A stretch of 64,000 bases of DNA from Alphaproteobacteria bacterium (lineage in GTDB: Bacteria; Pseudomonadota; Alphaproteobacteria; SHVW01), in the NCBI GenBank assembly GCA_016869645.1, contig VGDO01000005.1, forward strand, positions 6,885 to 70,884, given 5' to 3'. The notes beneath the pieces are model-generated. The model saw only the letters and a program-made list of their open reading frames with translations, was not told the DNA's origin and did not search any database. The stretch's first letter is position 1. The number at the start of each line of letters is the position of its first letter. This document shows, one piece after another, positions 8,653-47,247 of this stretch. The position numbers were made by a program, and so were the translations under genes.

Positions 8653-8661
8653 GACTTGGGA

Positions 8662-8934: not shown

Positions 8935-8999
8935 TGCCGACCTCCTTGCTGATCGGACCTATTTTAGTCCGGATTCAGTCCGATGGGAAGCTTCCCGGG

Positions 9000-9578: not shown

Positions 9579-9633
9579 CTTTCACCATGAGATTGTGCAG
9601 CACCAATCATTCTTGCCAACGCCCTCGGGGTAG

Positions 9634-11658
9634 CTACCGCACCCGCTTCCGGAAGCCCGTCGTCGTGAAGCGCTGATGCCCGTGCTTGCGGCCGAGCCGC
9701 TTGCCTTCGCCGCCGCCCGTGCCGGTGCCGGCAGGCTGCCACAGCGGCACGAGCTGGTGCTTGCCCGGGCCGATCAGGTCGGCGCGGCCCATGCGCTTCA
9801 GCGCGTCGCGCAGCAGCGGCCAGTTCTCCGCGTCGTGATAGCGCAGGAAGGCCTTGTGCAGCCGGCGCTGACGCAGATTGCGCACGATGGGAACCGGCTC
9901 GGATGCGCCGCGCCGGACCGCGCGCAAGGGGTTGACGCCGGAATGGTACATCGCGGTCGCCAGCGCCATGGGCGAGGGCAGGAAGGTCTGTACCTGGTCG
10001 GCGCGATAGCGGTTGCGCTTCAGCCACAGCGCGAGGTTCATCATGTCCTCGTCGGTCGTGCCCGGGTGCGCCGCGATGAAGTAGGGGATCAGGAAGTATT
10101 CCTTGCCGGCCTGCTTCGCCGCCTGGTCGAACAGCTGCTTGAAGCGCTCGTAGGCGCCGATGCCGGGCTTCATCATCTTGGTGAGCGGCCCGTCCTCGGT
10201 GTGCTCCGGTGCGATCTTGAGATAGCCGCCGACGTGATGCGTCACCAGCTCGCGCACATAGGCCGGGCTCTTGACCGCGAGGTCGTAGCGCACGCCCGAG
10301 GCGACCATCACCTTCTTGACGCCGGGCACCTGGCGCACCTTGCGGTAGAGCCCGATCAGCGCCTCGTGGCTCGTGTTCAGGTTCTCGCAGATGCCGGGAT
10401 AGACGCAGGACGGCCGCCGGCAGGCTGATTCGATCTTCGGGTCCTTGCACGCCATGCGGTACATGTTGGCGGTTGGCCCGCCGATATCGGAGATGATGCC
10501 GGTGAAGCCCTTGGTCTTGTCGCGGATCTCGCCGATCTCGCGTACGACCGATTCTTCCGAGCGGCTCTGGATGATGCGGCCCTCGTGCTCGGTGATCGAG
10601 CAGAACGAGCAGCCGCCGAAGCAGCCGCGCATGATGGTGACCGAGAAGCGGATCATGTCCCAGGCGGGGATCTTGGCATCGCCATAGCGGGGGTGCGGCG
10701 CCCGCGCATAGGGCAGGCCGTAGATGCCGTCCATCTCGGGCGTGGTCAGCGGGATCGGCGGCGGCGTCAGCCACAGCTCGCGGTCGCCGTGGCGCTGCAC
10801 CAGTGCCCGCGCATTGCCCGGATTGCTTTCCCGGTGGAGCACGCGGCTGGCACGCGCATAGGCTTCGGGGCTCTTCTCGACGTGATCGTAGGCGGGCAGG
10901 CGCACGACCGTGTTGCCCGGCCGCAGGCGCGCGCCCTCGTCGGCCGAATCGATGTCCTCGGCGCTGGCTTCGGTCCAGCCCTCCGGCACCGATGATTTCA
11001 GAAGCGCCACGCCGCGGATGTCGTCGAGCTCGGAAGGAGCGGCACCCTGGGCCATGCGATGCGCCACCTCGACGATGGCGCGCTCGGCATTGCCGTAGAG
11101 AAGAATGTCGCCCTTGGCGTCGGCCAGGATCGAGCGGCGCACCTTGTCCGACCAGTAGTCGTAATGCGCGATGCGGCGCAGCGACGCCTCGATGCCGCCC
11201 AGGACCAGCGACACGTCGCGATAGGCCTCGCGGCAACGCTGGGCATAGACGATGACGGAGCGGTCCGGCCGCTTGCCGCCCTCGCCGTCGGGCGTGTAGC
11301 TGTCATTGTGCCGGAGGCGACGGTCGGCCGTGTAGCGGTTGACCATGGAATCCATGTTGCCGCCGGTGATGCCGAAGAAGAGCACCGGCCGGCCGAGCGC
11401 CTTGAACGGCTCCGCACTCTGCCAGTCAGGCTGGGCGATGACGCCGACGCGGAAGCCCTGCGCCTCGAGCAGCCGGCCGACCAGCGCCATGCCGAAGCTC
11501 GGGTGGTCGATATAGGCGTCGCCGGTCACCAGCACGATGTCGCACGCATCCCAGCCGAGCTCGTCCATCTCGGCGCGCGACATGGGCAGGAACGGCGCCG
11601 TGCCGAACCGGTGCGCCCAGTGCTTGCGGTAGGAAAAGAGCGGCTTGGCCTGGTCCAT
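9634..11658 (-). CDS. ygiQ: YgiQ family radical SAM protein (UPF0313)
   Basis: The N-terminus ([62 protein letters not shown]) matches YgiQ. The radical-SAM CxxxCxxC motif (CFGGCSFCS) and the ~674 aa length also fit. Confidence 0.9.
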
Positions 11659-14450: not shown

Positions 14451-14537
14451 CCTACCGTGGTTGCCATGGGCCTGCGCGACGGAGTGAAAGTCAGCGCACT
14501 CATCATCCGGCCATCCCAGGGACATGGAGGCAATTCG

Positions 14538-16052
14538 ATGAAAACCAAGACAATTCTCGCCGGCCTGGCGCTTACCGTAGCGCTCGGCACCGCGCCGGCG
14601 CTGGCGCAAAAATCCTCCGACACGCTGCGCATCGTGCTGCGCGACGCGGTCACCAATGTCGATCCGTACTACAACCAGCTCCGCACTGGCCTCGTGATCG
14701 CGCACCAGGCATGGGACAATCTGATCTACCGCGATCCCGACACCTTCCAGCCGAAGCCGCTGCTGGCGACGTCGTGGAAGATCGACGATGACCTCACCAT
14801 CGACTTCACGCTGCGCCAGGGCGTCAAGTTCCACAACGGCGACCCGTTCAGCGCCGACGACGTGGTCTACACGCTCAATCTCGTCAGTGCGGCGGATTCG
14901 AAGATCTCGACGCCGAGCAACGCCAACTGGATCGAGAAGGCCGAGAAGCTCGACAACTACACGGTGCGCGTGAAGCTGAAGCGCCCGGTCCCGGCCGCAC
15001 TCGAGTACTTCGCCATGGTGCTGCCGATCTATCCCAAAGCCTATCGCGAGAAGGTCGGGCCCGATGGATACGCCAAGGCGCCGGTCGGCGCCGGCCCGTA
15101 CAAGATCACGCGCGCCGAGGCGCACCAGGTCGATTTCGAGCGGTTCGACGGCTACTACGACAGCCCCAAGGGCAAGCCCGCGATCGGCAAGCTGCAGGTC
15201 CGCTTCGTGCCCGACGCGGCGACCGAGATGACCGAGCTGCTCGCCGGCCGCGCCGAGTTCATCTGGAACTTCAATCCCGACCAGTTCGAATCGGTCAGTC
15301 GCATCCCGACGCTCCAGGCGCTGCGCCAGGAATCGATGCGCGTCGGCTTCATCCGGCTCGACGCGGCGGGCCGCTCGGGCGCCAACAACCCCATCACCAA
15401 CGTCAAGGTGCGCCAGGCGATCTTTCATGCCATCGACCGCGAGCAGATCGCCAAGGAGCTCGTGCGCGGCGGATCGCGCGTGCCGCCGGCACCCTGCTAT
15501 CCTTCGCAGTTCGGCTGCGACGGCGATGTCGCCGTGAAGTACAACTACGATCCGGCCAAGGCCAAGCAGCTTCTCGCCGAAGCCGGCTTCCCCAACGGGT
15601 TCGAGACCGAGCTCGTGACCTATGTGCTGCCGCAATGGGCGGCCTCGGTGCAGAGCTACCTCAACGCGGTCGGCATCAAGGCCAAGATCAGCCAGCTCCA
15701 GGTCCAGGCCCTCGTGCAGCGCTGCAGCCGCGGCGAGTGCCCGATGGACATGGGCAGCTGGGGCTCCTACTCGATCAACGACGTGTCGGCGATCATGCCG
15801 GTCTACTTTGGCGGCGGGAACGACGACTATGCCCGCGACGCCGAGGTGCAGAAGCTGCTGGAGACCGCCGGCACGACCATGGACACGGCCAAGCGCAAGG
15901 CGAACTACACCGCCGCGATCAAGCGCGCGACCGAGCAGGCCTACTGGGTGCCGCTGCACACCTACGTCACCACCTACGGCCTGTCGAAGACGGTCGGCAT
16001 GAAGACCTATGCCGACGAGATGCCGCGCTTCTGGCTCGCCAAGTGGCAGTGA
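14538..16052 (+). CDS. ABC transporter substrate-binding protein, family 5
   Basis: Start re-called at ATG 14538 (GGAGG RBS 7 nt upstream), giving the signal peptide MKTKTILAGLALTVALGTAPALA. The body shows SBP_bac_5 homology. Confidence 0.9.
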   Translation: MKTKTILAGLALTVALGTAPALAQKSSDTLRIVLRDAVTNVDPYYNQLRTGLVIAHQAWDNLIYRDPDTFQPKPLLATSWKIDDDLTIDFTLRQGVKFHNGDPFSADDVVYTLNLVSAADSKISTPSNANWIEKAEKLDNYTVRVKLKRPVPAALEYFAMVLPIYPKAYREKVGPDGYAKAPVGAGPYKITRAEAHQVDFERFDGYYDSPKGKPAIGKLQVRFVPDAATEMTELLAGRAEFIWNFNPDQFESVSRIPTLQALRQESMRVGFIRLDAAGRSGANNPITNVKVRQAIFHAIDREQIAKELVRGGSRVPPAPCYPSQFGCDGDVAVKYNYDPAKAKQLLAEAGFPNGFETELVTYVLPQWAASVQSYLNAVGIKAKISQLQVQALVQRCSRGECPMDMGSWGSYSINDVSAIMPVYFGGGNDDYARDAEVQKLLETAGTTMDTAKRKANYTAAIKRATEQAYWVPLHTYVTTYGLSKTVGMKTYADEMPRFWLAKWQ

Positions 16053-16265: not shown

Positions 16266-17225
16266 CTACGCCATCTCCACCAGATGACATTCCGCGAGCC
16301 CGCGCCGGTCGCGGCGCGGCATCGGCGCATCGCTCCTGCATCGATCGATCGCGGCCGGGCAGCGCGGGTGGAAGCGGCAGCCCGGGGGAATGTTCGCCGG
16401 GTCGGGCATGGTGTCGCCGAGCTCGGTGTCGGGAATGCCGAGGCCCGGCTCCGGCGTCAGCACCGAAGCGAGCAGCGCCTTGGTATAGGGATGGCGCGGC
16501 GCGCGAAACAGCGTCTCGGTCTCGGCGCGCTCGACGATGCGGCCGAGATACATGACGGCGACCTCGCTCGCGACATGCTCGACGACCGCGAGATTGTGGC
16601 TGATGAAGAGATAGGAAAGACCCAGCTCGCGCCGGAGCTCGGCCAGCAGGTTGAGGATCTGCGCCTGCACCGACACGTCGAGCGCGCTGGTCGGCTCGTC
16701 GCACACGACGATGCGCGGGTGCAGCACGAGGGCGCGCGCGATCGCCACGCGCTGACGCTGGCCGCCGCTGAGCTCCGCCGGCTGGCGCTCGCCCAGCTCC
16801 GGATCGAGGCCGACACGCGCGAGCATGGCGTCGACGCGGCGGCGAATCTCGCCATCGGCAATGCCGCCTTGCGCGACCAGCGGCACGCCGACGATGTCGC
16901 GTACCCGGCGGCGCGGATTGAGCGAGGAATAGGGGTCCTGGAACACGGGCTGGATCAGCCGGGCGCGCTCGCGCCGGTCCAATCCGTCGAGGCGTCTGCC
17001 GTCGATCAGCACTTCGCCGGCGCTGGGCTCGATCAAGCCCAATATGATCTTGGCGAGGGTCGACTTGCCGCAGCCGGATTCGCCGACCACGCCCAGCACC
17101 CCGCCCGCCGGCAGGCTCAGCGACACGCCGTCGACGGCGACGATGCGCTTGGGCTGGGCGAACAGCCCCGACTTGACCCGGAACTGGTGGCCGACATCGC
17201 GGATCTCGATCAGCGGTGTCGTCAC
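16266..17225 (-). CDS. ABC transporter ATP-binding protein (DppF/OppF-like)
   Basis: Start at GTG 17225, forming a GTGA overlap with the upstream ATPase stop. [28 protein letters not shown] and the HPYT...CRFHPRC tail are present. Confidence 0.85.
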   Translation of the reverse strand: MTTPLIEIRDVGHQFRVKSGLFAQPKRIVAVDGVSLSLPAGGVLGVVGESGCGKSTLAKIILGLIEPSAGEVLIDGRRLDGLDRRERARLIQPVFQDPYSSLNPRRRVRDIVGVPLVAQGGIADGEIRRRVDAMLARVGLDPELGERQPAELSGGQRQRVAIARALVLHPRIVVCDEPTSALDVSVQAQILNLLAELRRELGLSYLFISHNLAVVEHVASEVAVMYLGRIVERAETETLFRAPRHPYTKALLASVLTPEPGLGIPDTELGDTMPDPANIPPGCRFHPRCPAAIDRCRSDAPMPRRDRRGLAECHLVEMA

Positions 17226-18193
17226 GGCGCCGTCACCCGATCGGGCGGGATCTGGCAGAGATAGTCGTGCTGCGCGGCCAGTCGGTGGCGGACGATCTCG
17301 CCGGCGCAGTCGGGCCGCGCAAGCGTACAGCGCTCCACGAAGGCGCAGCCGCGGAAGCTCTGCGTCATGCGCGGCACCATGCCGGGGATCGAGCCGAGCG
17401 GCTGGTCGCGCCGAACCTTGCCCGGCACGGGCACGCAGTCGAGCAGGCCGCGCGTGTAGGGGTGCATCGGCTTGGTGAACAATTGCGCCACCGGTGCGCT
17501 TTCGACCACCTCCCCGGCGTACATGACGGAGACGCGGTGAGCCGTGCGCGCGACCACGCCGAGGTCGTGGGTGATCAGCAGGATGGCGAGACCGAGATCC
17601 TTCTGCAGATCGCTCAGCAGCCGGAGGATCTGCGCCTGGACCGTGACGTCCAGCGCGGTCGTCGGCTCGTCGGCGATCAGGAGCTCGGGCGAGCACATCA
17701 ACGCCATGGCGATCATGACGCGCTGCCGCAGCCCGCCCGAGAGCTGATGCGGGTATTGGCCGAGCCGCATGCCGGGCGAGGTGATGCGCACCCGCGCCAG
17801 CAGCTCCTCCGCGCGCGCCAGCGCCGCGGCGCGCGTGGCGCCGCGATGGCGCTGCATGACCTCGATCATCTGCGAGCCGACCGTGTAGGCCGGATTGAGG
17901 CTGGTCATCGGCTCCTGGAAGATCATGGCCAGCCGGTTGCCGCGCAGGCGCGACATGGCGCGCTCGTTGAGCGCGAGCAGATCAGTGCCGTCGAAGCGCA
18001 GGACGCGCGCGTCGCGTCGTCCGTTGCGCGCGAGCAGGCCCATGATGGAGAGCGCGGTCACCGACTTGCCGCAGCCCGATTCGCCGACCAGGCAATGGGT
18101 CTCGCCCTTGTTGACCTGGAGCGAGGCGCCGCGCACGGCGGCGAGCGAACCGAAGCTGATCTCCAGCCCCTCGACCTCGAGCAGAGCGGTCAT
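17222..18193 (-). CDS. ABC transporter ATP-binding protein (DppD/OppD-like)
   Basis: Start at ATG 18193 ([14 protein letters not shown]...), forming an ATGA overlap with the permease stop. [17 protein letters not shown] and [12 protein letters not shown] are present. Confidence 0.85.
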
Positions 18194-19023
18194 GCGACGC
18201 GTCCCGTGCGCAGCAGGTCGCGCAGGCCGTCGCCCAGCAGGTTGATGCCGAACACGAAGACGAAGAGGGCGATGCCCGGGATGGTGATGACCCAGGCATT
18301 GAAGAACATGTACTCCTTGCCTTCGGCGATCATCAGGCCCCAGGAGGGCAGGGGCGGCGGCACACCGAGGCCGAGGAAGGAGAGCGCCGCCTCGAGCAGG
18401 ATGGCGAGCGCCATCTCCAGGGTCGCGACGACCGCGAGCGGCGAGGCGATGTTGGGCAGCACGTCGCGCAGCAGGATGTGCGCGCGCGAGCAGCCGGCAG
18501 ACCACGCGGCCGACACGTAGTCGAGCGTGCGCACCTGCATGGTCGCCACGCGCGCCACGACGGCGAAGCGCTCCCACAGGAGAAAGCCGAGGGTCGCGAC
18601 GACCACGGTGAGCGAGCTGCCGATCAGCGACACGACCGCCAGGGCGACGAGAATGAGCGGAATCGCCAGGCGCGCGGTGATGGCGAACAGCACGACGTCG
18701 TCGATCCGCCCGCCGAAGAACCCGCCGGTCACGCCCAGGGCGATGCCGATCAAGCCCGAAGTGATGACCGTCATGACGCCGATCAGCACGGAAATGCGCG
18801 CCCCATAGATCAGGCGCGACAGGTAGTCGCGTCCGATGTGATCGGTGCCGAGCAGGTGGCCCGGCAGGCTGCCCTCCATCCAGATCGGCGGTTTCAGGCG
18901 CCGGCTCAGGTCCATGCCAAAGGGATCGTGCGGTGCCAACAGGGGGGCGAACAGCGCGACGAGCAGGGTGAAGGCGACGATGAACGCTCCCACCCACAAG
19001 CCGGCGTTGCGCCAGCCCTTCAT
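18190..19023 (-). CDS. ABC transporter permease (DppC/OppC-like)
   Basis: Start chosen at ATG 19023 (MKGWRNAGLWVGAFIVAFTLLVALFAPLLAPHDP) with an AGGGGA RBS. An alternative upstream ATG at 19089 would overlap the preceding gene by 35 nt. Confidence 0.8.
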   Translation of the reverse strand: MKGWRNAGLWVGAFIVAFTLLVALFAPLLAPHDPFGMDLSRRLKPPIWMEGSLPGHLLGTDHIGRDYLSRLIYGARISVLIGVMTVITSGLIGIALGVTGGFFGGRIDDVVLFAITARLAIPLILVALAVVSLIGSSLTVVVATLGFLLWERFAVVARVATMQVRTLDYVSAAWSAGCSRAHILLRDVLPNIASPLAVVATLEMALAILLEAALSFLGLGVPPPLPSWGLMIAEGKEYMFFNAWVITIPGIALFVFVFGINLLGDGLRDLLRTGRVA

Positions 19024-19054
19024 CGGCGCCCATCCCCTGCGAAGAACGGGACCG

Positions 19055-19972
19055 TCACGAGGCGCGCAGCCTCGGATCGAGCACGGCATTCAGCAGGTCG
19101 GCCGCGAGCGTCAGGAGCGTGTAGATGATCGCCAGCAGCAACACGACCGCCTGCACGGTCGGGTAGTCGTTCTTGCTGATCGACTCCCAGGCGAGGAAGC
19201 CGACGCCGTGCAGCGCGAACACGGTCTCGATGACAATCGATCCGCCGAGCATGAAGCCGAACTGCACGGCCGCGATCGAGACGACGGGCATGGCCGCGTT
19301 GCGCGCGGCATGCTTGAGCAGGATCGAGGCACGCGACAACCCCTTGGCGCGCGCCGTGCGAATGTAGTCGGAACCCATCGCGTCGATCATGCCGCTGCGC
19401 GTCAGGCGCATGAGCGCGGGGATCGCCGAGAAGGCGAGCACGATGCCGGGCATCACGAAATGCTGCCAGGTGCCGGTGCCGGAAATCGGCAGCCAGCCGA
19501 GGCGCAACCCCAGCGTGATCATCAGCAGGAGGCCGAGCCAGAAGGACGGCATGGCCTGGCCGAGCAAGGCCACGACCGAGATCAACCGGTCGGCCAGCCG
19601 CCCTTCGTTGAGAGCTGAGATGACGCCGAGCGGCAGCGCCACCACGAGAGCGATGCCGAGGCCGACCAGCCCCAGCGTGAGCGTGATCGGCAGGCGGTCG
19701 ACGATCAGCTTGGAGACGCGCTCGCGGAAAAAATAGGACTGCCCGAAATCACCGACCACGGCACGGCCCACCCAGTCGAAGAACTGCTCGAGGATCGGCC
19801 GGTCGAGGCCATAGGCCTTGCGGATGATCTCGATATCGGCGGCCGTTGCCTGGGCGCCGGCTATGGAAATGGCAAGGTCGCCCGCCAGGCGCGTCAGGGC
19901 AAACGCAAAGGTCAGGACGGTGACGCAGACGAGAAGCGCGACCAGCAGACGGCGCGCAAGAAACTCAAGCAT
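19055..19972 (-). CDS. ABC transporter permease (DppB/OppB-like)
   Basis: Start re-called at the M of MLEFLARRLLVALLV.... The first 73 codons of the track ORF are a spurious extension. Confidence 0.8.
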   Translation of the reverse strand: MLEFLARRLLVALLVCVTVLTFAFALTRLAGDLAISIAGAQATAADIEIIRKAYGLDRPILEQFFDWVGRAVVGDFGQSYFFRERVSKLIVDRLPITLTLGLVGLGIALVVALPLGVISALNEGRLADRLISVVALLGQAMPSFWLGLLLMITLGLRLGWLPISGTGTWQHFVMPGIVLAFSAIPALMRLTRSGMIDAMGSDYIRTARAKGLSRASILLKHAARNAAMPVVSIAAVQFGFMLGGSIVIETVFALHGVGFLAWESISKNDYPTVQAVVLLLAIIYTLLTLAADLLNAVLDPRLRAS

Positions 19973-20220: not shown

Positions 20221-21795
20221 ATGAGCCGAGAGACGCAATTGGGTCGAGAGATCTGGCAGATGGATCGCCGGCGGTTCCTTCAGCTTTCCGTGCCCGCAGG
20301 CGTCATGCTGTCCTTCGCTCGCGTCCTGGACGGCCACGCCGCCGTCTCGAACATGGTGTTCGGCTCGGCCGGCGGCGTGTCGCGTTTCGATCCCTATCTT
20401 TCGACCGATCTGGTCGAGAACATCGCGTTCTTCAATCTGTTCGACAACCCGGTCAGGCCCTTGCCCGATTCCAGCCTCGCGCCGAGCCTGGCGTTGAGCT
20501 GGAGCACGACCAATCCGACGACCTGGGTGTTCAAGCTGCGCCAGGGTGCGACCTGGCACAACGGCGATCCCTTCACCGTCGAGGACATGCTGTTCAGCCT
20601 GGCGCGCGTCGTCGATCCGGCGTCGCGCTCGATCTTCGCCGGCAACTTCGCGGTCATCGACAAGGCGTCCGCGATCGACAGTCACACCTTGCAGATTACG
20701 ACCAAGGGGCCGGACCCGTTCATGCCGATGCGGCTCGCGAACTACGGCTCGCATGTCCTGCCGCACAAGTATTTCCAGAGCGTCGGCCCGGCGAAGTTCG
20801 CCTCCGAACCGATCGGCACCGGTCCTTACAAGCTCAAGGAGTTCAACCCAGGGCAGGTCGTCGTGCTGGAGCGCCATCCCGGCTATTGGGAGCGGCCGCT
20901 GATGGAGACCATCACGATCAGGCGCCTGCCGGAGCTGTCGGCGCGCGTCGCTGCGCTCAAGACGGGCGAGGTCCACATGATCAACGGCGTGTCGCCCGAC
21001 GCTGCACCGCAAATCGACACGGGCACGACCCGGCCCGTCACCAGCCTGTCGGGCTCGGCGTTTTTCCTGCCGATCAACATGCGCACGGCGCCGCTCGGCA
21101 ACAAGGATATCCGCCATGCGCTCAGTCTGGCGATCGACCGCGATTCCATCAGCAAGAACCTGTTCGCCGGCCAGGCCCAGCCGCTGAAGGAGCCGATCTT
21201 GCCCGGTTCGGTCGGCGCCGATCCGTCGCGTCCGGCGCTGCGCTACGACCCCGACATGGCGAAGAGCCTGGTCAGGAAGGCCGGCTATCGCAACGAAGAG
21301 ATCCTGTTCGAGACGCTGGCCAGCCTTTATTTCGGCGTCGACCGCGACATCGCCGAGGCGATGACCGCCATGTGGGGCGCGGTCGGCTTGAACGTGAAGA
21401 TGAGCGTGCTCGAGCCGGCGGTGCGCGCGCAGAAAAACTCGGCGCGCGCGTTCAACGGCCTGTTCGCCGCCTATTTCGCCTCGCAGTACAACGATGCCGC
21501 CGGCCTGCTCTGGCGCTCGATGAACCCGAGCGGCATCCTCGCGCATTATTGGAACGTGCCCGGCGCCAACGATCCCGCGAAGTTCAACGAGCTGGGCGCC
21601 AAGGCCGTGCAAATCTTCGACGAGGCCGAGCGCGCGAAGATCTACAAGGAGATGGTCGACATCTTCCTCGACGTCATGCCCTGGATTCTGCTGTTCCAGC
21701 CGCCGATCATCTACGGCACGGTGCGCGAGTTCAAACTCAGCCCCGGCCCGAACATCCTGCTCAATTTCCGGAAGGAAACGCTGGCGCCGGCGTGA
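20221..21795 (+). CDS. ABC transporter substrate-binding protein, family 5, with Tat-type signal
   Basis: GGAGG sits 6 nt upstream of ATG 20221. The twin-arginine motif DRRRFLQLSVPAGVM is present, and the body shows SBP_bac_5 homology. Confidence 0.9.
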   Translation: MSRETQLGREIWQMDRRRFLQLSVPAGVMLSFARVLDGHAAVSNMVFGSAGGVSRFDPYLSTDLVENIAFFNLFDNPVRPLPDSSLAPSLALSWSTTNPTTWVFKLRQGATWHNGDPFTVEDMLFSLARVVDPASRSIFAGNFAVIDKASAIDSHTLQITTKGPDPFMPMRLANYGSHVLPHKYFQSVGPAKFASEPIGTGPYKLKEFNPGQVVVLERHPGYWERPLMETITIRRLPELSARVAALKTGEVHMINGVSPDAAPQIDTGTTRPVTSLSGSAFFLPINMRTAPLGNKDIRHALSLAIDRDSISKNLFAGQAQPLKEPILPGSVGADPSRPALRYDPDMAKSLVRKAGYRNEEILFETLASLYFGVDRDIAEAMTAMWGAVGLNVKMSVLEPAVRAQKNSARAFNGLFAAYFASQYNDAAGLLWRSMNPSGILAHYWNVPGANDPAKFNELGAKAVQIFDEAERAKIYKEMVDIFLDVMPWILLFQPPIIYGTVREFKLSPGPNILLNFRKETLAPA

Positions 21796-21858: not shown

Positions 21859-22788
21859 ATGATGCACCGCCTCGCGGTCCTGATCCTCGCCAAGCTGCTC
21901 CGCATCGTTGTGGTCATGGCGGGTGTTGTGACCATCGTTTTCCTGCTGCTGCGCCTGTCGGGCGACCCGGTCTCGGCTGTGGCGCCACCGGATGCGACCG
22001 TCGACGACATCGCGGCACTGCGCAAGGCATACGGCTTCGATCAGCCGCTGCACATTCAGTACGTGCAGTTCATCGGCAACATCCTGGTCGGCGATTTCGG
22101 CACCTCGTTCCAATACAGCCGGCCGGCCATATCCGTGGTGATGAGCCGGGTCGGCGCCACCATGACGCTCGCCGTGCTCGCCATGGCGATCTCGATCGTG
22201 ATCGCCATTCCCGTGGGCTTCATCTGCGCGCGCTACCGCAACCGGCCGTTCGATCATGCGCTGGTCGGCTTTGCCGTGCTGGGCAACACGGCGCCGACCT
22301 TCTTCGTCGGCATCGTGCTCATCCTGATCTTCTCGGTCTGGCTGCGGCTGACGCCAACCAGCGGCTCCGGCAGCTTCGCCCATCTGATCCTGCCCGTGGC
22401 GACGCTCGCGGTCGCCTCGACCGCGAGCCTGCTGCGCATGACGCGTTCGGAAGTCCTCGAAGTCCTCGGCAAGCCCTTCGTGCGCACCGCGCGCGCGCAG
22501 CGTCTGCCGCGCATTCGCTTCATCCTGGCCTATGTGCTCAAGAATGCCGCCATCCCGATCGTGACCCTGGCCGGTCTGCAGTTCGGTGTGCTGCTCAGCG
22601 GCGCCATCGTGACGGAAACGGTGTTCGGCTGGCCCGGCATCGGCACGCTGGCGCTCGAGGCGATCAGCCGGCGCGACTACGCCGTCGTGCAGGCCGTGGT
22701 CTGCATCACGGCCTTCATCTTCGTGGCGCTCAACGCCGTGATCGACGTCGTCTATCAGCTCCTCGATCCGCGCATTGCCGTGGAGTAG
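21859..22788 (+). CDS. ABC transporter permease (DppB-like)
   Basis: MMHRLAVLILAKLLRIVVVMAGVVTIVFLLLRLSGDP... is the typical DppB N-terminus, followed by six TM segments. Confidence 0.9.
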   Translation: MMHRLAVLILAKLLRIVVVMAGVVTIVFLLLRLSGDPVSAVAPPDATVDDIAALRKAYGFDQPLHIQYVQFIGNILVGDFGTSFQYSRPAISVVMSRVGATMTLAVLAMAISIVIAIPVGFICARYRNRPFDHALVGFAVLGNTAPTFFVGIVLILIFSVWLRLTPTSGSGSFAHLILPVATLAVASTASLLRMTRSEVLEVLGKPFVRTARAQRLPRIRFILAYVLKNAAIPIVTLAGLQFGVLLSGAIVTETVFGWPGIGTLALEAISRRDYAVVQAVVCITAFIFVALNAVIDVVYQLLDPRIAVE

Positions 22789-22827
22789 CAGCATGAGCCG
22801 GCAGCGCCTCCATCGGGCAGACTCGGC

Positions 22828-23688
22828 ATGAGCGGCGTCAGCCTCGATATTGCCGCGCAGGGCGGCGAGGCAACCTCGTCCCGGCGCTTCGGGCCGCTCA
22901 ATGCTTTCTTTGTCGCGTGGCTCCTGCTCATGTTGGCGGCGGCGCTGTTCGGGCCGGTCCTGTTTGGCGACCAGGCGATGCAGCAGAGTCTGGGCACGCG
23001 GCTCAAGCCGCCGGGTGCCGCGCACTGGATGGGTACGGATCAGGTGGGCCGCGACATCTTTGCCCGCGTCATCGTCGGCGCGCGTCCCACGCTGGTGATC
23101 GCGCTGTTCGGCGTGCTGGCGGGCATGCTGCTGGGCACGGTCACCGGCACGCTGGCGGGCTATTTCGGTGGCGCGGTCGATCGTGTGTGCATGGCGCTGG
23201 TCGACGTCAAGCTGGCCTTCCCGACCATCCTGTTCGCCATCGGCGTGATCGCCGTGTTCGGCACCAGCACGACCATCCTGGTGATCGTCGTCGGCCTGAC
23301 CGGGTGGGTGACCTATGCCCGCGTGCAGCGCAGCGTCGTGCTCAAGGTCAACGCGCAAACCTATATCGAGGCGTCGCGGGCGGTCGGCTCGTCCCATCTC
23401 CGCGTCGTATGCCGCCATATCATTCCGAACTCGCTGTCGCCGTTGCTCGTCGTCGCCAGCATTGATCTCGTCCGCGTCATTCTGCTCGAGGCCTCGCTCA
23501 GTTTCCTCGGTCTCGGCATCCAGCCGCCGACGCCGAGCTGGGGTGGCATGATCAATTCCGGGCGCAGCTATCTGGAGACGGCCTGGTGGATCTGCGTCTG
23601 CCCGGGCCTGGTCATCATGATGACCGCGCTCAGCATATCCAGGCTCGGCGACTGGCTGCGCGACGTGCTCGATCCCGACCTGAGTTGA
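22828..23688 (+). CDS. ABC transporter permease (DppC-like)
   Basis: ...FGPLNAFFVAWLLLMLAAALFGPVLFGDQAM...HWMGTDQVGRDIFARV is the DppC signature. Confidence 0.85.
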   Translation: MSGVSLDIAAQGGEATSSRRFGPLNAFFVAWLLLMLAAALFGPVLFGDQAMQQSLGTRLKPPGAAHWMGTDQVGRDIFARVIVGARPTLVIALFGVLAGMLLGTVTGTLAGYFGGAVDRVCMALVDVKLAFPTILFAIGVIAVFGTSTTILVIVVGLTGWVTYARVQRSVVLKVNAQTYIEASRAVGSSHLRVVCRHIIPNSLSPLLVVASIDLVRVILLEASLSFLGLGIQPPTPSWGGMINSGRSYLETAWWICVCPGLVIMMTALSISRLGDWLRDVLDPDLS

Positions 23689-23697
23689 CGGTCGCCG

Positions 23698-24774
23698 ATG
23701 CAGCCGGCCCGGACCGACAGCCGACGACCTGATCCCGCTCCTGTGGCGAGCGGTTATTCTCTGATCGTCAGGGACCTTCACGTCCATCTTCGCTCGCGCC
23801 ACGGCACCGTGCATGCGGTCAACGGCATCTCCTTTGCCGTGAAGCCCGGCGAGATCCTGGGCATCGTCGGCGAATCCGGCAGCGGCAAGTCGGTGGCCAT
23901 GCTGGCCGTGATGGGCTTCTTCGACCGCGAGGCCGCGCGCCTGATCTCCGGATCGGTGACGGTCGGCGGAACGGAATGGCGCGAGCTGGCGGCTCCCGAT
24001 CCCTGGTCGTCGCGCTCGCCCGAGCTCGCGATCATCTTCCAGGACGCCGTGTCCTCGCTCAATCCCGTGCTGACCGTCGGCAGCCAGATGACCGACACGC
24101 TGATGGCGCGGCAGCCTAAGTCAGGCGGGGGCATGCCCCGCCCGGCGGCGCGACGGCGTGCCGCCGAGCTGCTCGACCTCGTGCGCATCCCCGACGCCGC
24201 GCGCTGCCTCGACCTCTATCCGCACCAGCTCTCGGGCGGCATGTGCCAACGCGTGATGATTGCCATGGCCATCAGCGCAGACCCCAGCGTGCTGATCGCC
24301 GACGAGCCGACCACCGCGCTCGACGTCACGGTGCAGTCGCAGATTCTCGACGTCCTGCTCGAGATTCGTCAGCGCACCGGCATGTCGATCGTCATGATCA
24401 GCCATGATTTCGGCGTCATCGCCCGCGTCGCCGACCGCGTCCAAGTCATGTATGCCGGCCGGATCGTCGAGCGCGGCGGCGTCGACGACATATTCAGCCG
24501 GCCGCAGCATCCCTACACCCGCGCATTGCTGGCGTGCAGTCCGCGCATCGACCGTGGCGAGCAGGCGTCGCAGATCATCCCGGGTGCTCCGCCGGACATG
24601 CGGCTGGCCTTCGCGGGATGTCCGTTCGCGGCGCGCTGCGCCGAGGTCATGGGGGTCTGCCGGCGCGACGAGCCCGCGCTCCGACCAGTCGGCAGCGGAG
24701 CCGTCCTGGAGCGGTACGCGGCCTCGTGCTGGCTGCCGCGGATCGCTGACGCCGGGAATGGCGATGGTCGCTGA
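23698..24774 (+). CDS. ABC transporter ATP-binding protein (DppD-like)
   Basis: [29 protein letters not shown] and [10 protein letters not shown] are present. The true start could lie a few codons downstream. Confidence 0.85.
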
Positions 24775-25792
24775 GCCGGCACGGGCGGCAGGTCCGGCGT
24801 CGAGCGCTCCGCTTCTCGCGCTCGACGACGTCACGGTCGAGTTCGCCGGACGCCGGCGCCTGGGCCGGCCGCCACCCGCGCCGGTCCGCGCGGTCGATCG
24901 CGTCTCGCTGCGGGTCGATCGCGGCGAGATCCTCGGCCTGGTCGGCGAGTCGGGCTGCGGCAAGAGCACGCTCGGCCGCGTGATCGCCGGCATCATCGAG
25001 CCGACCGCGGGGCGAGTCGCGATCGACGGCCGCGACATCGCCTCCTACCGCGGGGCCGAACGGCGCACGCTCCGGCGCATGCTGCAGATGGTGTTCCAGA
25101 ATCCCTATGGCGCACTCGATCCGCGCATGCGCGTTGACGCGATCGTGCGCGAACCTCTCGATGCCAATGGCATCGGCTCGCCCGGCGAACGCAGGGAAAG
25201 GGTCGCCAAGGCGCTTGGATTGGTCGGTCTTGGCGCCCAGCACGCGATGGCCCTGCCGGGCAAGCTGTCGGGCGGTCAGCAGCAGCGCGTCGGCATCGCG
25301 CGCGCCCTCGTCACCTCGCCGGCGCTGCTCGTCTGCGATGAGGTGACGAGCGCGCTCGACGTCAGCATCAAGATGCAGATCTCCGAGCTGCTGCTGGCGC
25401 TGCATCGCGAGCTCGACCTGGTCTATGTCTTCATCTCGCACGATCTCGGCGTGGTCCGGCGCCTTGCGACGCGGATCGCCGTCATGTATCTGGGGCAGAT
25501 CGTCGAGCTCGCCGATACGGCGTCGTTCTACGCCGGTCCCGCGCATCCCTATGCGCGCGCCTTGTTGACAGCCGTGCCGATTCCCGATCCCGCCGCCGAG
25601 CGCGGTCGCGCCCGTCTGCTCATCACTGGCGAGGTGCCGAGCCCGTCGAACCCGCCGAGCGGTTGCCGCTTCCGGACGCGCTGCCCCTTCGCCCAGCAGC
25701 GCTGCACCGACGAGCCGCCGCAGCTGCGGCAGATCGCCGGCGCGCGCACCGTGGCGTGCCACTTTCCGTTGATAGGCGCCGATAGTGGATAG
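24758..25792 (+). CDS. ABC transporter ATP-binding protein (DppF-like)
   Basis: Start at ATG 24758 (MAMVAEP...), overlapping the preceding gene by 17 nt. [18 protein letters not shown] and [11 protein letters not shown] are present. Confidence 0.85.
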   Translation: MAMVAEPARAAGPASSAPLLALDDVTVEFAGRRRLGRPPPAPVRAVDRVSLRVDRGEILGLVGESGCGKSTLGRVIAGIIEPTAGRVAIDGRDIASYRGAERRTLRRMLQMVFQNPYGALDPRMRVDAIVREPLDANGIGSPGERRERVAKALGLVGLGAQHAMALPGKLSGGQQQRVGIARALVTSPALLVCDEVTSALDVSIKMQISELLLALHRELDLVYVFISHDLGVVRRLATRIAVMYLGQIVELADTASFYAGPAHPYARALLTAVPIPDPAAERGRARLLITGEVPSPSNPPSGCRFRTRCPFAQQRCTDEPPQLRQIAGARTVACHFPLIGADSG

Positions 25793-27461: not shown

Positions 27462-28334
27462 TCAAGTTCCTGGCCGTATCCCGTCGAGGCCGTCGACGTC
27501 GCGCGCCGAGACGCAGATGCTGGCGAGCGTTCGCTCCTCTTCATAGGGCCAGGGCCGGCCGCGATGGAGCACGGCGCGCTCGTCCCAGATCAGTACGTCG
27601 CCCGGCCGCCATGCGTGGGTGTAGACCGTTCCGGGGCGGGTCGCGAAGGCGATCAGTTCGTCTATCAGCGCGCGGCCTTCAGCCTCCGGCAGCCCGTCGA
27701 CCGCGAAGGCATGCGAGGCGATATAGAGTGAATCCTCGCCGTTGATGGGATTGCGCCAGACCGCCTTCCAGGCCTGGCTGCCCCATTTCGTGTAGCGCTC
27801 CAGCCTGGCGAGCTCGGCCGACACCTTGGCGCGAGAATGCGCGGCGCTGTGATGAACCACCGCATGCCTCGCCTTAGCCTTGAGCGATTCGGGCAGATCG
27901 CGCCAGGCGGCGCGCGTTGAGGCGAATTCCGTTTCGCCGCCGCGCGAGCTCAGAACGCAGGCCGCGAGAATGTTGATGAGCGCGGGCACGGGCAGAAACG
28001 TGCTGTCGGTGTGCCAGAGCTGATTGGCGATCAGGTTCAGCGTGACGTGATCATCGGGTGCCGCGATCCGATCGTCGGCCATTCGGTTGGTCACGTTGTC
28101 CATGCGCGGCTCCGGACCGTTGCGTCCCTGCGAGCGGTCCTCGATCGGTCCGAACAGAGCGCCGAGCGCTAGGTGGGCTTCATCGTCGAGCTGCTGATTG
28201 CGGAAGAGTAGGAGCGAATGGGATTCAAACGCGGCGCGGATCTCGGGATACCCGTCATCCGCAGTCACGCGCGTCAGATCGACGTCGTGGATCTCGACGC
28301 CGAAGCGGGAATGAAGCGGTGTGCTGCGCATCAA
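27462..28334 (-). CDS. TauD/TfdA family Fe(II)/2-oxoglutarate-dependent dioxygenase
   Basis: FGVEIHDVDL...YPEIRAAFESHSLLLFRNQQL...WHTDSTF...HAW is the TauD/TfdA pattern, including the HxD facial triad region. Confidence 0.85.
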   Translation of the reverse strand: MMRSTPLHSRFGVEIHDVDLTRVTADDGYPEIRAAFESHSLLLFRNQQLDDEAHLALGALFGPIEDRSQGRNGPEPRMDNVTNRMADDRIAAPDDHVTLNLIANQLWHTDSTFLPVPALINILAACVLSSRGGETEFASTRAAWRDLPESLKAKARHAVVHHSAAHSRAKVSAELARLERYTKWGSQAWKAVWRNPINGEDSLYIASHAFAVDGLPEAEGRALIDELIAFATRPGTVYTHAWRPGDVLIWDERAVLHRGRPWPYEEERTLASICVSARDVDGLDGIRPGT

Positions 28335-28469
28335 GATTGACGCTAGAGATCAAGCGACATCGGGTCAATGCGGCAGGTTCCCTGGCGCATGACTGTCACA
28401 TAGCGGCGTCGCAATTCCGAAGATCGGCGTCGTACGGGCATTTGACGGGTCGATTCTCCGACACCTATC

Positions 28470-30140
28470 ATGACCGCCAACAACGCGGTTCACCAGCAAG
28501 CAGCCGCCGCCTCAAGCGAACAAAACAGACACAGGGAGAGGACCACGCGCGAAATAGACTATTGGACCCAACAGGTTGCGAAGGGCCGTATCTTCAGGCG
28601 CGAGTTCATGGGGCGCGCCGCGGCGCTCGGCGTCTCCACGGCTATGGCGACCAGCATGCTGTCGGCGGCCGGCGTGGCGCAGCAGCCCAAGCGCGGCGGC
28701 CTCGCGCGCTTCGGCCTGGCGCACGGTGCGACCACCGACTCGCTGGATCCGGGCACCTATCCCGACACCTTCTCGCAATGCGCGTTCTCGGGCGCGATGT
28801 CGAACACGCTGACCGAGCTCGATCCGGACGGCAAGGTGATCGGCGATCTCGCCGAGAGCTTCGAGCCGTCGAACAGCGCCAAGACCTGAGTCTTCCGCCT
28901 GCACAAGGGACTGACCTTCCACAACGGCAAGACCGTGACCGCGGCCGATGCCGTCGCTTCGATTCAGTACCACATGGGTGCCAACTCGAAATCGGCGGCG
29001 AAGTCGCTGGTCGCGGCCATCACCGACATCAAGGCCGACGGCCCGAACAACGTGGTGATCACGCTGCGCGAAGGCAGCGCCGATTTCGCCGCCATCATGA
29101 GCGACTACCATCTCGTGATCTCGCCGGCGAAGTCCGATAGCACGTCGGACTGGCAATCGGGCGTGCGCACCGGCCCGTTCGTCTATGACCGCTTCACGCC
29201 CGGCGTCAGCGCCAAGCTGAAGCGCAATCCCAACTACCACCGCTCGGGCATGCCCTATTTCGACGAGGTCGAATTCCTGGCGCTGACCGATGTCGCGGCG
29301 CGCACCAACGCGCTGACCACGGGCGAGACCCACTTCATGAGCCGCTGCGACCTCAAGACCGTCCACCTGCTCAAGCGCAATCAGAACGTGAATGTCTACG
29401 AGCTGACCGGCCTCGGTCACTATGCGTTCCCGATGAACACGACCGTGGCGCCCTTCGACAATGTCGATGTGCGCAAGGCGCTCAAATACGCGGTTGACCG
29501 CCAGGACATCGTCAACAAGATCTTCCTCGGCTATGCCGCGGTCGCCAACGACAATCCGATCGCGCCGAGCATCCGCTATGCGATCGACCCGCTGCCCAAG
29601 CACGTCTACGACATCGACAAGGCCAAGTTCCATCTGAAGCAGGCCGGCCTGTCCAATCTCAAGGTCGCGATCAACGTCGCCGACGCCGCCTTCAACGGCG
29701 CGGTCGACACGGCGGTGCTCTACAAGGAGCACGCGGCCAAGGCCGGCATCGACATCGAGGTCGTGCGCGAGCCGAACGACGGCTATTGGGACAAGGTGTG
29801 GCTCAAGAAGCCCTGGTGCGCGACCTATTGGGGCGGCCGCGTCACCTGCGACTGGATGTTCACCACGGCCTATGCCGAGGGTGCGGCCTGGAACGAGACG
29901 TTCTGGAAGCACCCCAAGTTCAACCAGCTCCTGCTGCAGGCGCGCTCCGAGACCGACGACAAGAAGCGCGCAGACATGTATGCCGAGATGCAGCAGCTCG
30001 TGCACGACGATGGCGGCGCCGTCGTCCTCGTCTTCTACAAATATGTCAGCGCGCATTCGAAGAAGCTGGCCCATGGCCGCATCTCCAGCGTCTTCGACCT
30101 CGACGGTCTGCGCATCGCCGAGCGGTGGTGGCTGACCTGA
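28470..30140 (+). pseudogene. Family-5 ABC substrate-binding protein gene interrupted by one in-frame TGA (28887-28889) at a conserved Trp position
   Basis: Track ORFs 28470..28889 and 28935..30140 share a frame. The sequence AAG ACC TGA GTC TTC CGC reads ...AKT*VFRLHKGLTFHNGK, where family-5 SBPs have KTW-x-F-x-LRKG. A Tat-like signal (RREFMGRAAALGV) lies upstream. Confidence 0.7.
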
Positions 30141-30242
30141 GCCGCAATCGCGGCTGCACGTGACGGATAGCCATCGAGCGGGCAGGGGGCCGATGCCTCT
30201 CGCCCGCCCGATGGCGTCCCTCACCTGAGGGGTGCCGGCGGC

Positions 30243-31223
30243 GTGAATCCCATCGTCACGACGGTGCTGCAGCGCGTCGGGCTCGGCGTGCTGACGCTGC
30301 TTGCCGTCTCGGTCATCATCTTCGCCATGATCGAGATGCTGCCGGGCGATTTCGCCTCGGCGATTCTCGGCCAGACCGCCACGCCGGAGACGGTCGCCGC
30401 CTTCCAGCGCTCGATCGGTCTCGACAAGCCGCCGGTCACGCGCTACTTCGAGTGGATCGGCGGGGTGCTGCAGGGCAATTTCGGCGAATCCTTCTCGAGC
30501 GCCGGCGCGCTCGGCGGCGGACATGCCAAGACCGTCGCCTCGCTGATCGGCCCGCGCCTGTCCAACACATTGTTCCTGGCGGGCTTCACGGCGCTGATCT
30601 CGGTGCCGCTGTCGCTGGCGCTCGGCCTGCTCGCCGCGCTCTACCGCAACAGCATCTTCGACCGCACGGTCAATCTGGTGACGTTGACGACGATCTCGGT
30701 GCCGGAGTTCTTCGTCGCCTACATCCTCATGCTGATCCTGGCGGTCAAGTTCCCGATCTTCTATTCGCTCGCCAATGTCTCGCCCGACACGCCGTTCTTC
30801 GAGCGCGTCGCGCGCACGGCGCTGCCCGCCATCAGCCTGATGCTGGTCATCGTCGCGCACATGATGCGCATGACGCGCGCGGCGATCATCAACCTGCTCG
30901 CCAGCCCCTATATCGAGATGGCCAAGCTGAAGGGACTGGCGCCCTCGAGCGTCATCCTGCGCCACGCGCTGCCGAACGCCTGGGCGCCGATCGGCACCGT
31001 GGTCGCGCTCAACCTCGCCTACCTGATCGTCGGCGTCGTCGTTGCCGAAGTCGTCTTCGTCTATCCCGGGATCGGCCAGCTCATGGTCGACTCGGTCGCG
31101 GCCCGCGACATTCCCGTGGTGCAGGCCTGCGCGCTGCTGTTCGCCATGGCCTATATCCTGCTCAATCTGCTAGCCGACATCGTCGGCATCGTCACCAACC
31201 CGAGACTGCTGCACCCGCGATGA
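30243..31223 (+). CDS. ABC transporter permease (DppB-like)
   Basis: GTG start. VNPIVTTVLQRVGLGVLTLLAVSVIIFAMIEMLPGDFA... is typical DppB. Confidence 0.85.
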   Translation: MNPIVTTVLQRVGLGVLTLLAVSVIIFAMIEMLPGDFASAILGQTATPETVAAFQRSIGLDKPPVTRYFEWIGGVLQGNFGESFSSAGALGGGHAKTVASLIGPRLSNTLFLAGFTALISVPLSLALGLLAALYRNSIFDRTVNLVTLTTISVPEFFVAYILMLILAVKFPIFYSLANVSPDTPFFERVARTALPAISLMLVIVAHMMRMTRAAIINLLASPYIEMAKLKGLAPSSVILRHALPNAWAPIGTVVALNLAYLIVGVVVAEVVFVYPGIGQLMVDSVAARDIPVVQACALLFAMAYILLNLLADIVGIVTNPRLLHPR

Positions 31224-32125
31224 CCGAACGCGTCGACATTGCCGGCGTCGAAGAGAGGCCCCGCCCGACCGAGCCGGCCCAGCCGGGTCCTTTCGCCACC
31301 ATGTGGCGCGTCTTCGCGCGCATGCCGCTCTCCGCCCAGTTCGGTACGGTCGTGATCCTGGCCTACGTCTTCGTCGCGGTCTTTGCCCCCTGGCTGGCGC
31401 CGTTCCGGGAATCCCAGATCGTCGGCGCGCAGTTCGAGCCGTGGAGCGCGGCATTCCCGTTCGGCACCGACCAGCTCGGCCGCGACCTTCTCACGCGTCT
31501 CATCTACGGCGCGCGCAATACCATCGGGATCGCCGTTCTGACGACCGGGCTCGCCTTTCTGATCGGCGGCCTGCTCGGCCTGCTGGCATCGGTCGTCGGC
31601 GGATGGCTCGACCAGGCGCTGTCTCGCTGCGTCGATGTGCTGATGGCAATTCCGCTGCTGATCTTCGCTCTCGTGCTCCTGTCCATCTTCGGCACGTCCG
31701 TCTTCAACCTGGTGCTGATCATCGCCGTGCTCGATTCGACGCGCGTGTTCCGACTGGCGCGCGCGACCGCCATGAACGTCGTGGTCATGGAGTTCGTCGA
31801 GACAGCGCGGTTGCAGGGCGAAAGCCTGCTGTGGATCATGACCCGCGAGGTGCTGCCCAATATCCTGCCGCCGCTGACCGCCGAGTTCGGCCTGCGTTTC
31901 TGCTTCGTCTTCCTGACCATCAGCGCGCTGTCGTTCCTCGGCCTGGGCATCCAGCCGCCGACGGCGGATTGGGGCTCGATGGTGCGCGAGAACGCCACCC
32001 TGATCGCCTATGGCGACCCGACGCCGCTGCTGCCGGCGGGTGCCATTGCGCTGCTGACCGTGGCTGTCAATTTCGTCGTCGACTGGTTCCTCCACAAGAC
32101 GAGCGGGCTCCGGGATGAAGCCTAG
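31220..32125 (+). CDS. ABC transporter permease (DppC-like)
   Basis: ATG 31220 forms an ATGA overlap with the preceding stop. The track ORF 30452.. has an over-extended N-terminus. MTERVDIAG...FGTDQLGRDLLTRLIYGAR is the DppC signature. Confidence 0.85.
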   Translation: MTERVDIAGVEERPRPTEPAQPGPFATMWRVFARMPLSAQFGTVVILAYVFVAVFAPWLAPFRESQIVGAQFEPWSAAFPFGTDQLGRDLLTRLIYGARNTIGIAVLTTGLAFLIGGLLGLLASVVGGWLDQALSRCVDVLMAIPLLIFALVLLSIFGTSVFNLVLIIAVLDSTRVFRLARATAMNVVVMEFVETARLQGESLLWIMTREVLPNILPPLTAEFGLRFCFVFLTISALSFLGLGIQPPTADWGSMVRENATLIAYGDPTPLLPAGAIALLTVAVNFVVDWFLHKTSGLRDEA

Positions 32126-33746
32126 CGCCGCGCCGCTGCTCGAGATTCGCGGTCTGCACATCCAGGGCCAGAGCGGCGAGGTCTGGCAGGACATCGTCAA
32201 GGACATCAATCTTACGCTCCGGCGCAGCGAGGTGCTGGGGTTGATCGGCGAGTCCGGTGCGGGCAAGTCAACGCTCGGTCTCGCGGCCATGGGCTATGCG
32301 CGGGCGGGATGCCGTATCCTCTCCGGCACGATCAGCTTCGACGGGCTCGACCTGATCGCCATGCCCGAGGCGGAGAAGCGGCGCCTCTGGGGCACGCGCA
32401 TCGCCTATGTCGCGCAGTCGGCTGCCGCCTCGTTCAATCCGGCGCATCGGCTGATCGACCAATACAAGGAAGTGCCTGTCTATCACGGCAAGTCGGGCGA
32501 AGCGGAGGCCGAGCGCAACGCGCACGCCGTCTTCCGCCGGCTGCATCTGCCGGAGCCCGAGCGGATCGGGCTGCGCTATCCGCACCAGGTCTCCGGCGGC
32601 CAGCTCCAGCGCGTCATGACCGCCATGGCCATGGCGTGCGGACCCGATTTGATCGTGTTCGACGAGCCGACCACGGCGCTCGATGTCACCACGCAGATCG
32701 AGGTGCTGGCGGCGATCAAGGAGCTGGTCCGCAACTCCAACATGGCCGCCATCTACATTAGCCACGATCTCGCGGTCGTGGCGCAGATGGCCGATCGCGT
32801 CATGGTTTTGCGCTACGGCAGGCTGGTCGAGGAGGCGCGGACCGGCGAGATGCTGGCCCATCCGCGTCAGCCCTACACCAAATCGCTCTGGGCGGTGCGC
32901 TCGCTCAACAAGTCGGAAGAGTCGGGCGGCGACGTGGTGCTCAGCGTGCGCGGCGTGGACGCCGCCTACTCGGGCGTGGTCAAGGTGCTGCACGACGTGA
33001 ACCTCGAGGTGCGCCGCGGCCGCACCGTCGCCGTGGTCGGCGAATCGGGATCGGGCAAGTCGACGCTGGCGCGCGTCATCACCGGCCTCCTGCCGCCGCA
33101 CAAGGGCGAGATCGTCTTCGCCGGCAAGCCGCTACCGCCGGCCCTGAGCGAGCGTCCGAAGGACATGCTCCGGCGCATCCAGATGATCTACCAGATGCCC
33201 GACATGGCGCTCAATCCGCGCCGGCGCGTGCGCGACATCCTCGGCCGCACGCTCGAGCTGCATCGCGGCCTGTCCGGCGCGGCCCGCGAAAACCGCATCG
33301 TCGAGTTGCTCGAGATGATCGAGCTCGACGCTGGCTTCTTGAACCGCCTGCCGAGCGAACTGTCGGGAGGCCAGAAGCAGCGCATCTGCATCGCCCGTGC
33401 GCTCGCGGTCGAGCCCGATCTCATCATCTGCGACGAGGTCACCTCCGCACTCGACCAGATCGTCGCCGAAGGCATCCTGAAGCTGCTGCTCCGGCTGCAG
33501 AAGGAGCTCGGCGTCTCCTATGTCTACATCACTCACGATCTGGCGACTGTGAAGGCGATCGCCGATTGGATCGTGGTCATGCAGTGGGGCAAGGTGGTGC
33601 AGCAGGGCCCGAAGGGCGAGGTTCTGACACCGCCGCACCATCCCTATACCGAGCTGCTGCTGTCCTCGGTGCCGGAAATGCGCACGGACTGGCTCGACCG
33701 GCTGTTGAATGCGCGCCGCGTAGGAGCGCAGGCGACTTCGGCCTGA
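32115..33746 (+). CDS. ABC transporter ATP-binding protein with two fused ATPase domains (GsiA-like)
   Basis: Two complete Walker A / signature / Walker B sets are present (GESGAGKST...VSGGQLQRV...[11 protein letters not shown], then GESGSGKST...LSGGQKQRI...[11 protein letters not shown]). It overlaps the permease stop by 11 nt. Confidence 0.9.
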
Positions 33747-47054: not shown

Positions 47055-47247
47055 ATTCAAGCATAGAAGGGGTATTTGAGCGAGTCAAACGGGGGTCAAG
47101 ACCGTGCGAACCACCGAAGCCGAACAGCGATGCGGCTGTCCCGGAGCCGGTCCCCAGAGGACCGGCGCTTTTCCGTTTTGGTGTAGGATCGCGCACATCG
47201 AATGTCGGTGCGCCCGCTCGTGCGCACGCCGCGCTCGGGAGTCGCGA

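Follow-up and report, generated by a model that had tools for sequence, protein, structure and literature searches.

An early stop codon in a Tat-exported family-5 solute-binding protein gene of a Lake Tanganyika alphaproteobacterium: a probable young nonsense pseudogene

What is to be made of a gene which is complete over its whole length apart from one stop codon near its beginning: is it dead, is the stop decoded as an amino acid, or is the stop a mistake in the data? This question is raised by a gene for a family-5 solute-binding protein (SBP) which lies at positions 28545..30140 on the plus strand of a 64,000-nucleotide stretch of DNA (the window, which is the whole of what was analysed here). 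The window belongs to an uncultured alphaproteobacterium from Lake Tanganyika, a population represented in at least five lake samples, the genome of which has a G+C content of about 66%. The gene comprises 531 codons, starts with a Tat-type signal peptide, and is disrupted by one internal TGA at codon 115 (28887..28889, plus strand).

When a tryptophan is placed at the stop, the translation matches the Pfam family PF00496 (SBP_bac_5) with 245 bits (E 1.5e-72; the gathering score used as cut-off is 32.4 bits) from profile position 1 to 364 of 368, and the nearest homologues are proteins of 529-538 amino acids (typically 531) which are 61-71% identical to it. No equivalog was reached among the NCBIfam models, the best of which gave 159 bits where 600 would have been required. 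Sequence and translation agree in that the region 28470-30140 is interrupted in frame by one TGA, at 28887-28889, and ends with the terminal TGA at 30138-30140; no other stop and no change of frame were found in the ORF between 28470 and the terminal codon, as had been stated in a preliminary description of this locus. The GC3 in this frame is 0.93 upstream of the internal TGA and 0.89 downstream of it. A complete, translatable ORF is not present, as codon 115 is TGA and the native start position carries ACG, and in public data the gene is split into two ORFs, one of 139, 114 or 93 amino acids and one of 401 amino acids.

The preliminary description had let the gene begin with the ATG at 28470. 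This start had to be abandoned: the 531 amino acid homologues begin at 28545-28547, where a methionine is found in 113 of 119 of them, and no ribosome-binding site accompanies the ATG at 28470. This ATG is instead overlapped by the -10 hexamer of a predicted sigma-70-like promoter (28442..28471, plus strand; TTGACG, 18 nt, TATCAT). The promoter is a prediction from the consensus only, the scan having yielded one site where 0.4 were expected, and it is the sole promoter-like site in the region. A Shine-Dalgarno-like stretch, GGGAGAGG, can be read from the sequence at 28533..28540 (plus strand), 4 nt before the native start codon (28545..28547, plus strand). The Tat motif is S/T-R-R-x-F-L-K. The N-terminal consensus of the homologues, SRREFMGRAAALG, fits this export motif. 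At the corresponding codons 17-21 of the gene (28593..28607, plus strand) 12 of 17 sequences encode S-R-R-E-F, and the window encodes F-R-R-E-F. Among the homologues both R18 and R19 are invariant, and position 17 is a serine in 96 of 119, never a phenylalanine.

At the interruption the local sequence AKT*VFRLHKGLTFHNGK aligns with the homologue consensus AKxWVFKLRKGxTFHNGK in such a way that the TGA occupies the place of a tryptophan, W115 in the numbering of the 531-residue protein. The alignment was made from the 119 best matches of a protein search over 5.8 billion clusters, and W115 is invariant in all 119 of these nearest homologues. The signature block K-x-W-x-F-x-L-R-x-G-x-x-F-H-x-G is present, with W115, F125 and G128 invariant in 120 sequences. 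For a comparison of codons 80 related loci were taken from GTDB reference genomes (Stellaceae, Dongiaceae, Kiloniellales, Mesorhizobium, Aestuariivirga and others; 48-65% identical), and the codon aligned to the TGA proved to be TGG in each of the 80. That the residues around the stop belong to a conserved K-T-W-x-F-x-L-R-x-G block had been proposed in the preliminary description, with the codon in orthologues named as a check; the invariant tryptophan bears out the first, and the check gave a conserved Trp codon throughout. In the GsiB protein of Escherichia coli (PDB 1uqw) a tyrosine is aligned to W115. Judged from these alignments, position 115 is aromatic family-wide and strictly tryptophan in the subfamily of this SBP, and at the level of the codon the lesion is explained by one G-to-A transition from TGG to TGA.

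One base separates TGA from a sense codon, and the window by itself cannot rule out that the true codon is TGG, that the SBP gene is intact and that the stop is a sequencing or assembly error. Both SBP fragments were used for an exact-protein look-up, followed by retrieval of the contigs, which gave 17 distinct related contigs (L001-L011 and L095-L100) from JGI, ENA and Logan, that is from three assembly pipelines, drawn from at least 16 sample/run accessions and 99.6-99.99% identical to the window. These contigs are metagenome consensus sequences and not individual genomes, and some of the Logan contigs may re-assemble the reads of JGI contigs. At the level of single reads a TGG allele might persist as a minority in the samples. 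The JGI samples 3300020193, 3300020197, 3300020198, 3300020214 and 3300020220 are among 24 Lake Tanganyika metagenomes (10.1101/834861).

All 17 related contigs have the TGA at codon 115, on several different haplotypes of eight nearby SNP sites. The public protein collection contains exact entries for the N-terminal fragment and for the downstream ORF of 401 amino acids, each with several near-identical variants. An intact allele of the SBP was not found in this collection of about 15 billion proteins, in which no full-length protein exceeded 71% identity, and a query of 127 residues centred on the TGA site retrieved no site-spanning protein above 68% identity. Every sampled contig of the Lake Tanganyika population carries the nonsense allele. 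Since the TGA is identical in 17 contigs of several samples and three assembly pipelines, an error is refuted as an explanation, and we regard its probability as negligible; of the two possibilities offered in the preliminary description, a recent nonsense pseudogene or an error in sequencing or assembly, only the former stands.

A stop codon which is kept in frame across a whole sampled population might also be a sense codon by programme, either as selenocysteine or by use of genetic code 4 or 25. Of 19 neighbouring genes 14 terminate with TGA, as does the SBP gene itself, and among the 53 ORFs which were called by GC3 in the window the number is 38. The context of the internal stop, TGAG, is the commonest among the normal stops nearby (8 of 15). 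No SECIS-like fold was detected 3' of the TGA, the 81 nt from 28880 to 28960 folding no better than shuffled sequences (z = -0.24), and Rfam gave no match anywhere in the 64-kb window. The residue aligned to the TGA in the homologues is tryptophan, never cysteine or selenocysteine (119 of 119). Known lineages with code 4 or code 25 have a G+C content unlike the approximately 66% seen here. Selenocysteine and an altered code are rejected because TGA terminates the neighbours, TGAG is an ordinary context, fold and Rfam match are lacking and the homologues have tryptophan; such recoding has next to no probability. The preliminary description had likewise considered a readthrough context unlikely, and the ordinary TGAG, the lack of a structure downstream and the lack of an Rfam match are in accordance with this. 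A scan of the window for in-frame stops between coding-like flanks of high GC3 yielded 11 sites. Seven of these fit boundaries between adjacent genes in the same frame or antisense frames, those at 18518, 60679 and 61664 were left aside, and the TGA at 28887 is the only scanned stop shown to split a gene.

In the 1.8-kb region of the SBP gene eight SNP sites segregate among the related sequences. One lies in the upstream spacer (28377, G/C, where 12 of 15 sequences have the alternative base) and one at position 2 of the predicted -10 hexamer (28467, A to G, in 5 of 15). At 28546 the native start codon is affected: ACG is found in 11 of 17 sequences, namely in the window and ten related contigs, and ATG in six (L001, L011 and L095-L098). 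The SNP at 28594 exchanges serine 17 of the Tat motif S-R-R-x-F for the phenylalanine which is not seen in any homologue. At 29139, in codon 199 (29139..29141), the window has AGC for serine while 10 of 17 sequences have GGC for glycine, the residue present in 118 of 119 homologues; and at 29472, in codon 310 (29472..29474), CGC for arginine, which is conserved in 119 of 119 homologues, is replaced by TGC for cysteine in two contigs (L004 and L005). The two remaining SNPs, at 29277 and 29885, are synonymous singletons in the coding region. All four non-synonymous variants of the SBP are located at conserved columns, M1, S17, G199 and R310, with the ancestral state of each polymorphism deduced from homologues only 61-71% identical.

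Non-synonymous and synonymous SNPs stand at 4:2 in the SBP gene, compared with 3:10 in the 19 genes which flank it. When the amount of compared sequence is taken into account, the SBP gene shows an excess of non-synonymous SNPs (p = 0.0065) and none of synonymous SNPs (p = 0.46); a Fisher test on the ratio, which involves only six coding SNPs in this gene, gives p = 0.09. In the downstream genes of the transporter three synonymous SNPs and no non-synonymous SNP were observed. A loss of constraint in the SBP gene, but not in its neighbours, would be expected to leave such a pattern, small as the counts are.

These variants also bear on a way in which the gene could still function. UGA is the leakiest bacterial stop codon and is misread as tryptophan. 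Near-cognate decoding of the UGA by tRNA-Trp might yield a little wild-type SBP, by which a low level of function would be maintained: tryptophan is exactly the residue required, the remaining ORF is free of a second stop or frameshift, and the partner genes of the transporter are intact. The situation resembles natural UGA readthrough by tRNA-Trp in that the codon is UGA and in that misreading would regenerate the native protein; it differs from it by the ordinary context of the stop and by the extra damaging variants, which argue against retained function. If residual function were under selection, one would not expect the start codon to be lost in 11 of 17 sequences, nor the Tat motif, G199 and the invariant R310 to be altered. 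TGAG is, moreover, the commonest context of normal termination nearby, a stimulatory structure downstream is lacking, and the absence of further stops fits a young lesion equally well. Maintenance of the SBP by a leaky stop is on these grounds very unlikely.

A genuine, evolutionarily young nonsense pseudogene of a Tat-exported family-5 SBP is the reading which we consider very probable. As to its age, the same operon order is found in 38 of the 80 reference loci, and when the identity of the SBP was regressed on the identity of permease and ATPase in these 38 syntenic loci, the SBP of the window fell on the trend (mean residual -0.001, sd 0.05). By this regression the SBP gene evolved under normal constraint during nearly the whole time after it had split from its known relatives. 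Normal long-term divergence together with the lack of a second stop or indel therefore indicates that the lesion is young. The upstream neighbours of the nearest homologues differ from those in the window, so that these homologues may not be strict orthologues. In a leave-one-out comparison the SBP of the window deviated at 12 of 155 highly conserved columns, the mean for the others being 2.4; as a sign of long-term relaxation this figure was discarded, the query being the built-in outlier of a set picked by similarity to it.

The course of events may be pictured as follows. A G-to-A transition would have turned TGG, the only tryptophan codon, at position 115 into TGA, the commonest stop of this organism, and translation would then end after 114 residues, with about 18 of the approximately 350 residues of the Pfam domain preceding the stop. 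Since the stop precedes nearly the whole of the binding-protein fold, no receptor would be made. Later variants would then accumulate, such as loss of the start codon, the change in the predicted -10 hexamer, the change in the Tat motif, and those at Gly199 and Arg310. With the SBP protein absent, the remainder of the transporter would be either silent, by polarity, or served by another binding protein, for which the preliminary description had suggested an orphan SBP elsewhere. Between the stop at codon 115 and the permease genes about 1.25 kb of mRNA are left untranslated, and Rho-dependent polarity, as known in general, could lower permease expression.

The distribution of the variants leaves room for a further explanation, in which the loss was adaptive and the silencing selected. 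Loss of the receptor would have been advantageous, for example by blocking a toxic uptake, or the truncated Tat fragment would have been costly, and the variants in the -10 hexamer, the start codon and the Tat motif would have been positively selected. Three of the eight SNPs fall within the 35 nt of expression signals (-35, -10, Shine-Dalgarno, start and Tat) out of 1806 nt, for which a binomial test on a set defined post hoc gives p = 4e-4, and only two of 15 fully covered haplotypes are free of all three of the -10, start-codon and Tat-motif variants. In addition the four non-synonymous variants are all at conserved columns, and the nonsense allele is present in every sampled contig. Against this, the test is post hoc, it depends on a promoter predicted from its consensus only, and few sites are involved. 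Repulsion between the -10 and start-codon variants (Fisher p = 0.09) was rejected as a signal as linkage alone would produce it. That variants of this kind are present is explained by relaxed constraint, which does not, however, explain why they are in excess. We judge an adaptive loss with subsequent selected silencing to be unlikely. The same low probability is given to the idea of a series of selected knock-down steps, in which independent mutations of the -10 hexamer, the start codon and the Tat motif would have become more frequent after a TGA hit that may itself have been favoured, the gain being that a truncated Tat substrate which is costly or toxic, or a residual readthrough product, is no longer made. 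If true, this would be a natural case of selection silencing a broken gene, with several partial sweeps in one lake population.

The genes which would have worked together with this SBP are in good order. Downstream of it on the plus strand follow permease 1 (30243..31223; 326 amino acids, BPD_transp_1 with its N-terminal domain), permease 2 (31220..32125; 301 amino acids, OppC_N and BPD_transp_1), the start of which overlaps the stop of permease 1 in ATGA, and a fused ATPase (32115..33746; 543 amino acids, two ABC domains and oligo_HPY). All three are intact, have the expected domains and contain one synonymous SNP each as their only polymorphism, so that the claim of intact permease and fused-ATPase genes downstream was correct. 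An ORF at 31303-32118, which had been a candidate for permease 2, matches no Pfam family, and the real gene is that at 31220-32125, a normal OppC-type permease. The spacer between the SBP gene and permease 1 contains an imperfect hairpin with 21-nt arms of 81% complementarity (30170..30215, plus strand). Within 30170-30241 a second, adjacent imperfect inverted repeat with 16-nt arms at 75% is found, and no T-run follows; these repeats might form an intra-operon mRNA hairpin of the type often seen after SBP genes.

The SBP gene adjoins two BPD_transp_1 permeases and an oligo_HPY ATPase in the order of an importer of the Opp/Dpp/Nik type. With the cluster C SBPs of these systems the window shares a full-length PF00496 domain and the order of SBP, two BPD_transp_1 permeases and oligo_HPY ATPase. 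The nearest solved structure is the glutathione-binding protein YliB/GsiB of E. coli (1uqw), aligned over residues 58-509 with an E value of 1.4e-36. Unlike this reference, the SBP of the window has a Tat and not a Sec signal, a tryptophan and not a tyrosine at the site of the lesion, and an interrupted gene.

Pseudogenes of the opp/dpp type have been reported in Brucella, Yersinia pestis and Salmonella Typhi, in connection with niche restriction. The SBP gene is similar to the ABC-transporter pseudogenes of such niche-restricted bacteria in having one premature stop in a conserved ORF, intact partners and signs of relaxed constraint. It differs from them in that it occurs in a free-living freshwater metagenome population, in that the lesion is present in all sampled contigs, and in that the variants of its later decay are still polymorphic. 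We see in it an ordinary pseudogene, produced by a single hit and showing early signs of decay; it is not a surprising one, and the understanding of ABC importers and of stop-codon decoding is left unchanged by it. For annotation it means that the two public ORFs belong together as the halves of a single dead gene, and neither ought to be listed as a protein. Its value lies in a cleanly dated early stage of pseudogene decay in a free-living freshwater bacterium, with the first lesion in every sampled contig and secondary ones polymorphic. With the rest of the transporter intact, one may ask if its permease and ATPase genes are now silent, doomed, or served by another binding protein.

A close paralogue in the window was considered as a replacement receptor. 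Two other SBPs of the window (531 and 524 amino acids) were compared with the broken one; their identities to it were only 24% and 27%, and this candidate was dropped. Altogether five family-5 SBP genes are located in the window, at 130-2172 and 6055-8205 on the minus strand and at 14457-16052, 20221-21795 and 28545-30140 on the plus strand, along with at least four sets of Opp/Dpp-type permeases and ATPases, including 2865-3878, 5004-5996, 16266-17696, 18190-19089, 19055-19972 and 21859-25792. The SBP gene at 14457-16052 converges on a permease/ATPase operon of the minus strand, and this operon lacks an SBP gene on its own strand.

Divergent from the disrupted gene and sharing its upstream spacer is a gene for a 2-oxoglutarate dioxygenase of the TauD/TfdA family (27462..28331, minus strand; PF02668), the nearest solved structures of which are TfdA-like. 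It carries P260H in one of 12 and C125R in six of 12 sequences, plus one synonymous SNP; neither P260 nor C125 is shown as strictly conserved in the alignment with TfdA-like structures. Besides this dioxygenase, a luciferase-like monooxygenase is encoded further downstream of the transporter module in the window. The nearest intact homologues, which are 69-70% identical, are found in two relatives (L092, 1-12640, and L093, 1-21602), where the module adjoins genes for a choline sulfatase, a DAO-FAO_M-GCV_T oxidase, an MttB-family methyltransferase, a choline kinase, OpuAC, and a GMC oxidoreductase with an aldehyde dehydrogenase. These surroundings hint that what the SBP subfamily imports is not peptides but a quaternary-amine or organosulfur compound.

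Three minor observations concern the window as a whole. ARAGORN called a 92-nt tRNA-Gln(CTG) at 47103-47194 on the minus strand, which overlaps the start of a plus-strand ORF at 47104-48264 with a weak match to a phosphonate-binding protein; it is probably a false positive, as an Rfam scan at gathering thresholds gave no tRNA in the window. A region of about 2.2 kb, 57180-59374, is without a high-GC3 ORF in the rough gene call. The G+C content dips to 0.60 at 8001-10000.
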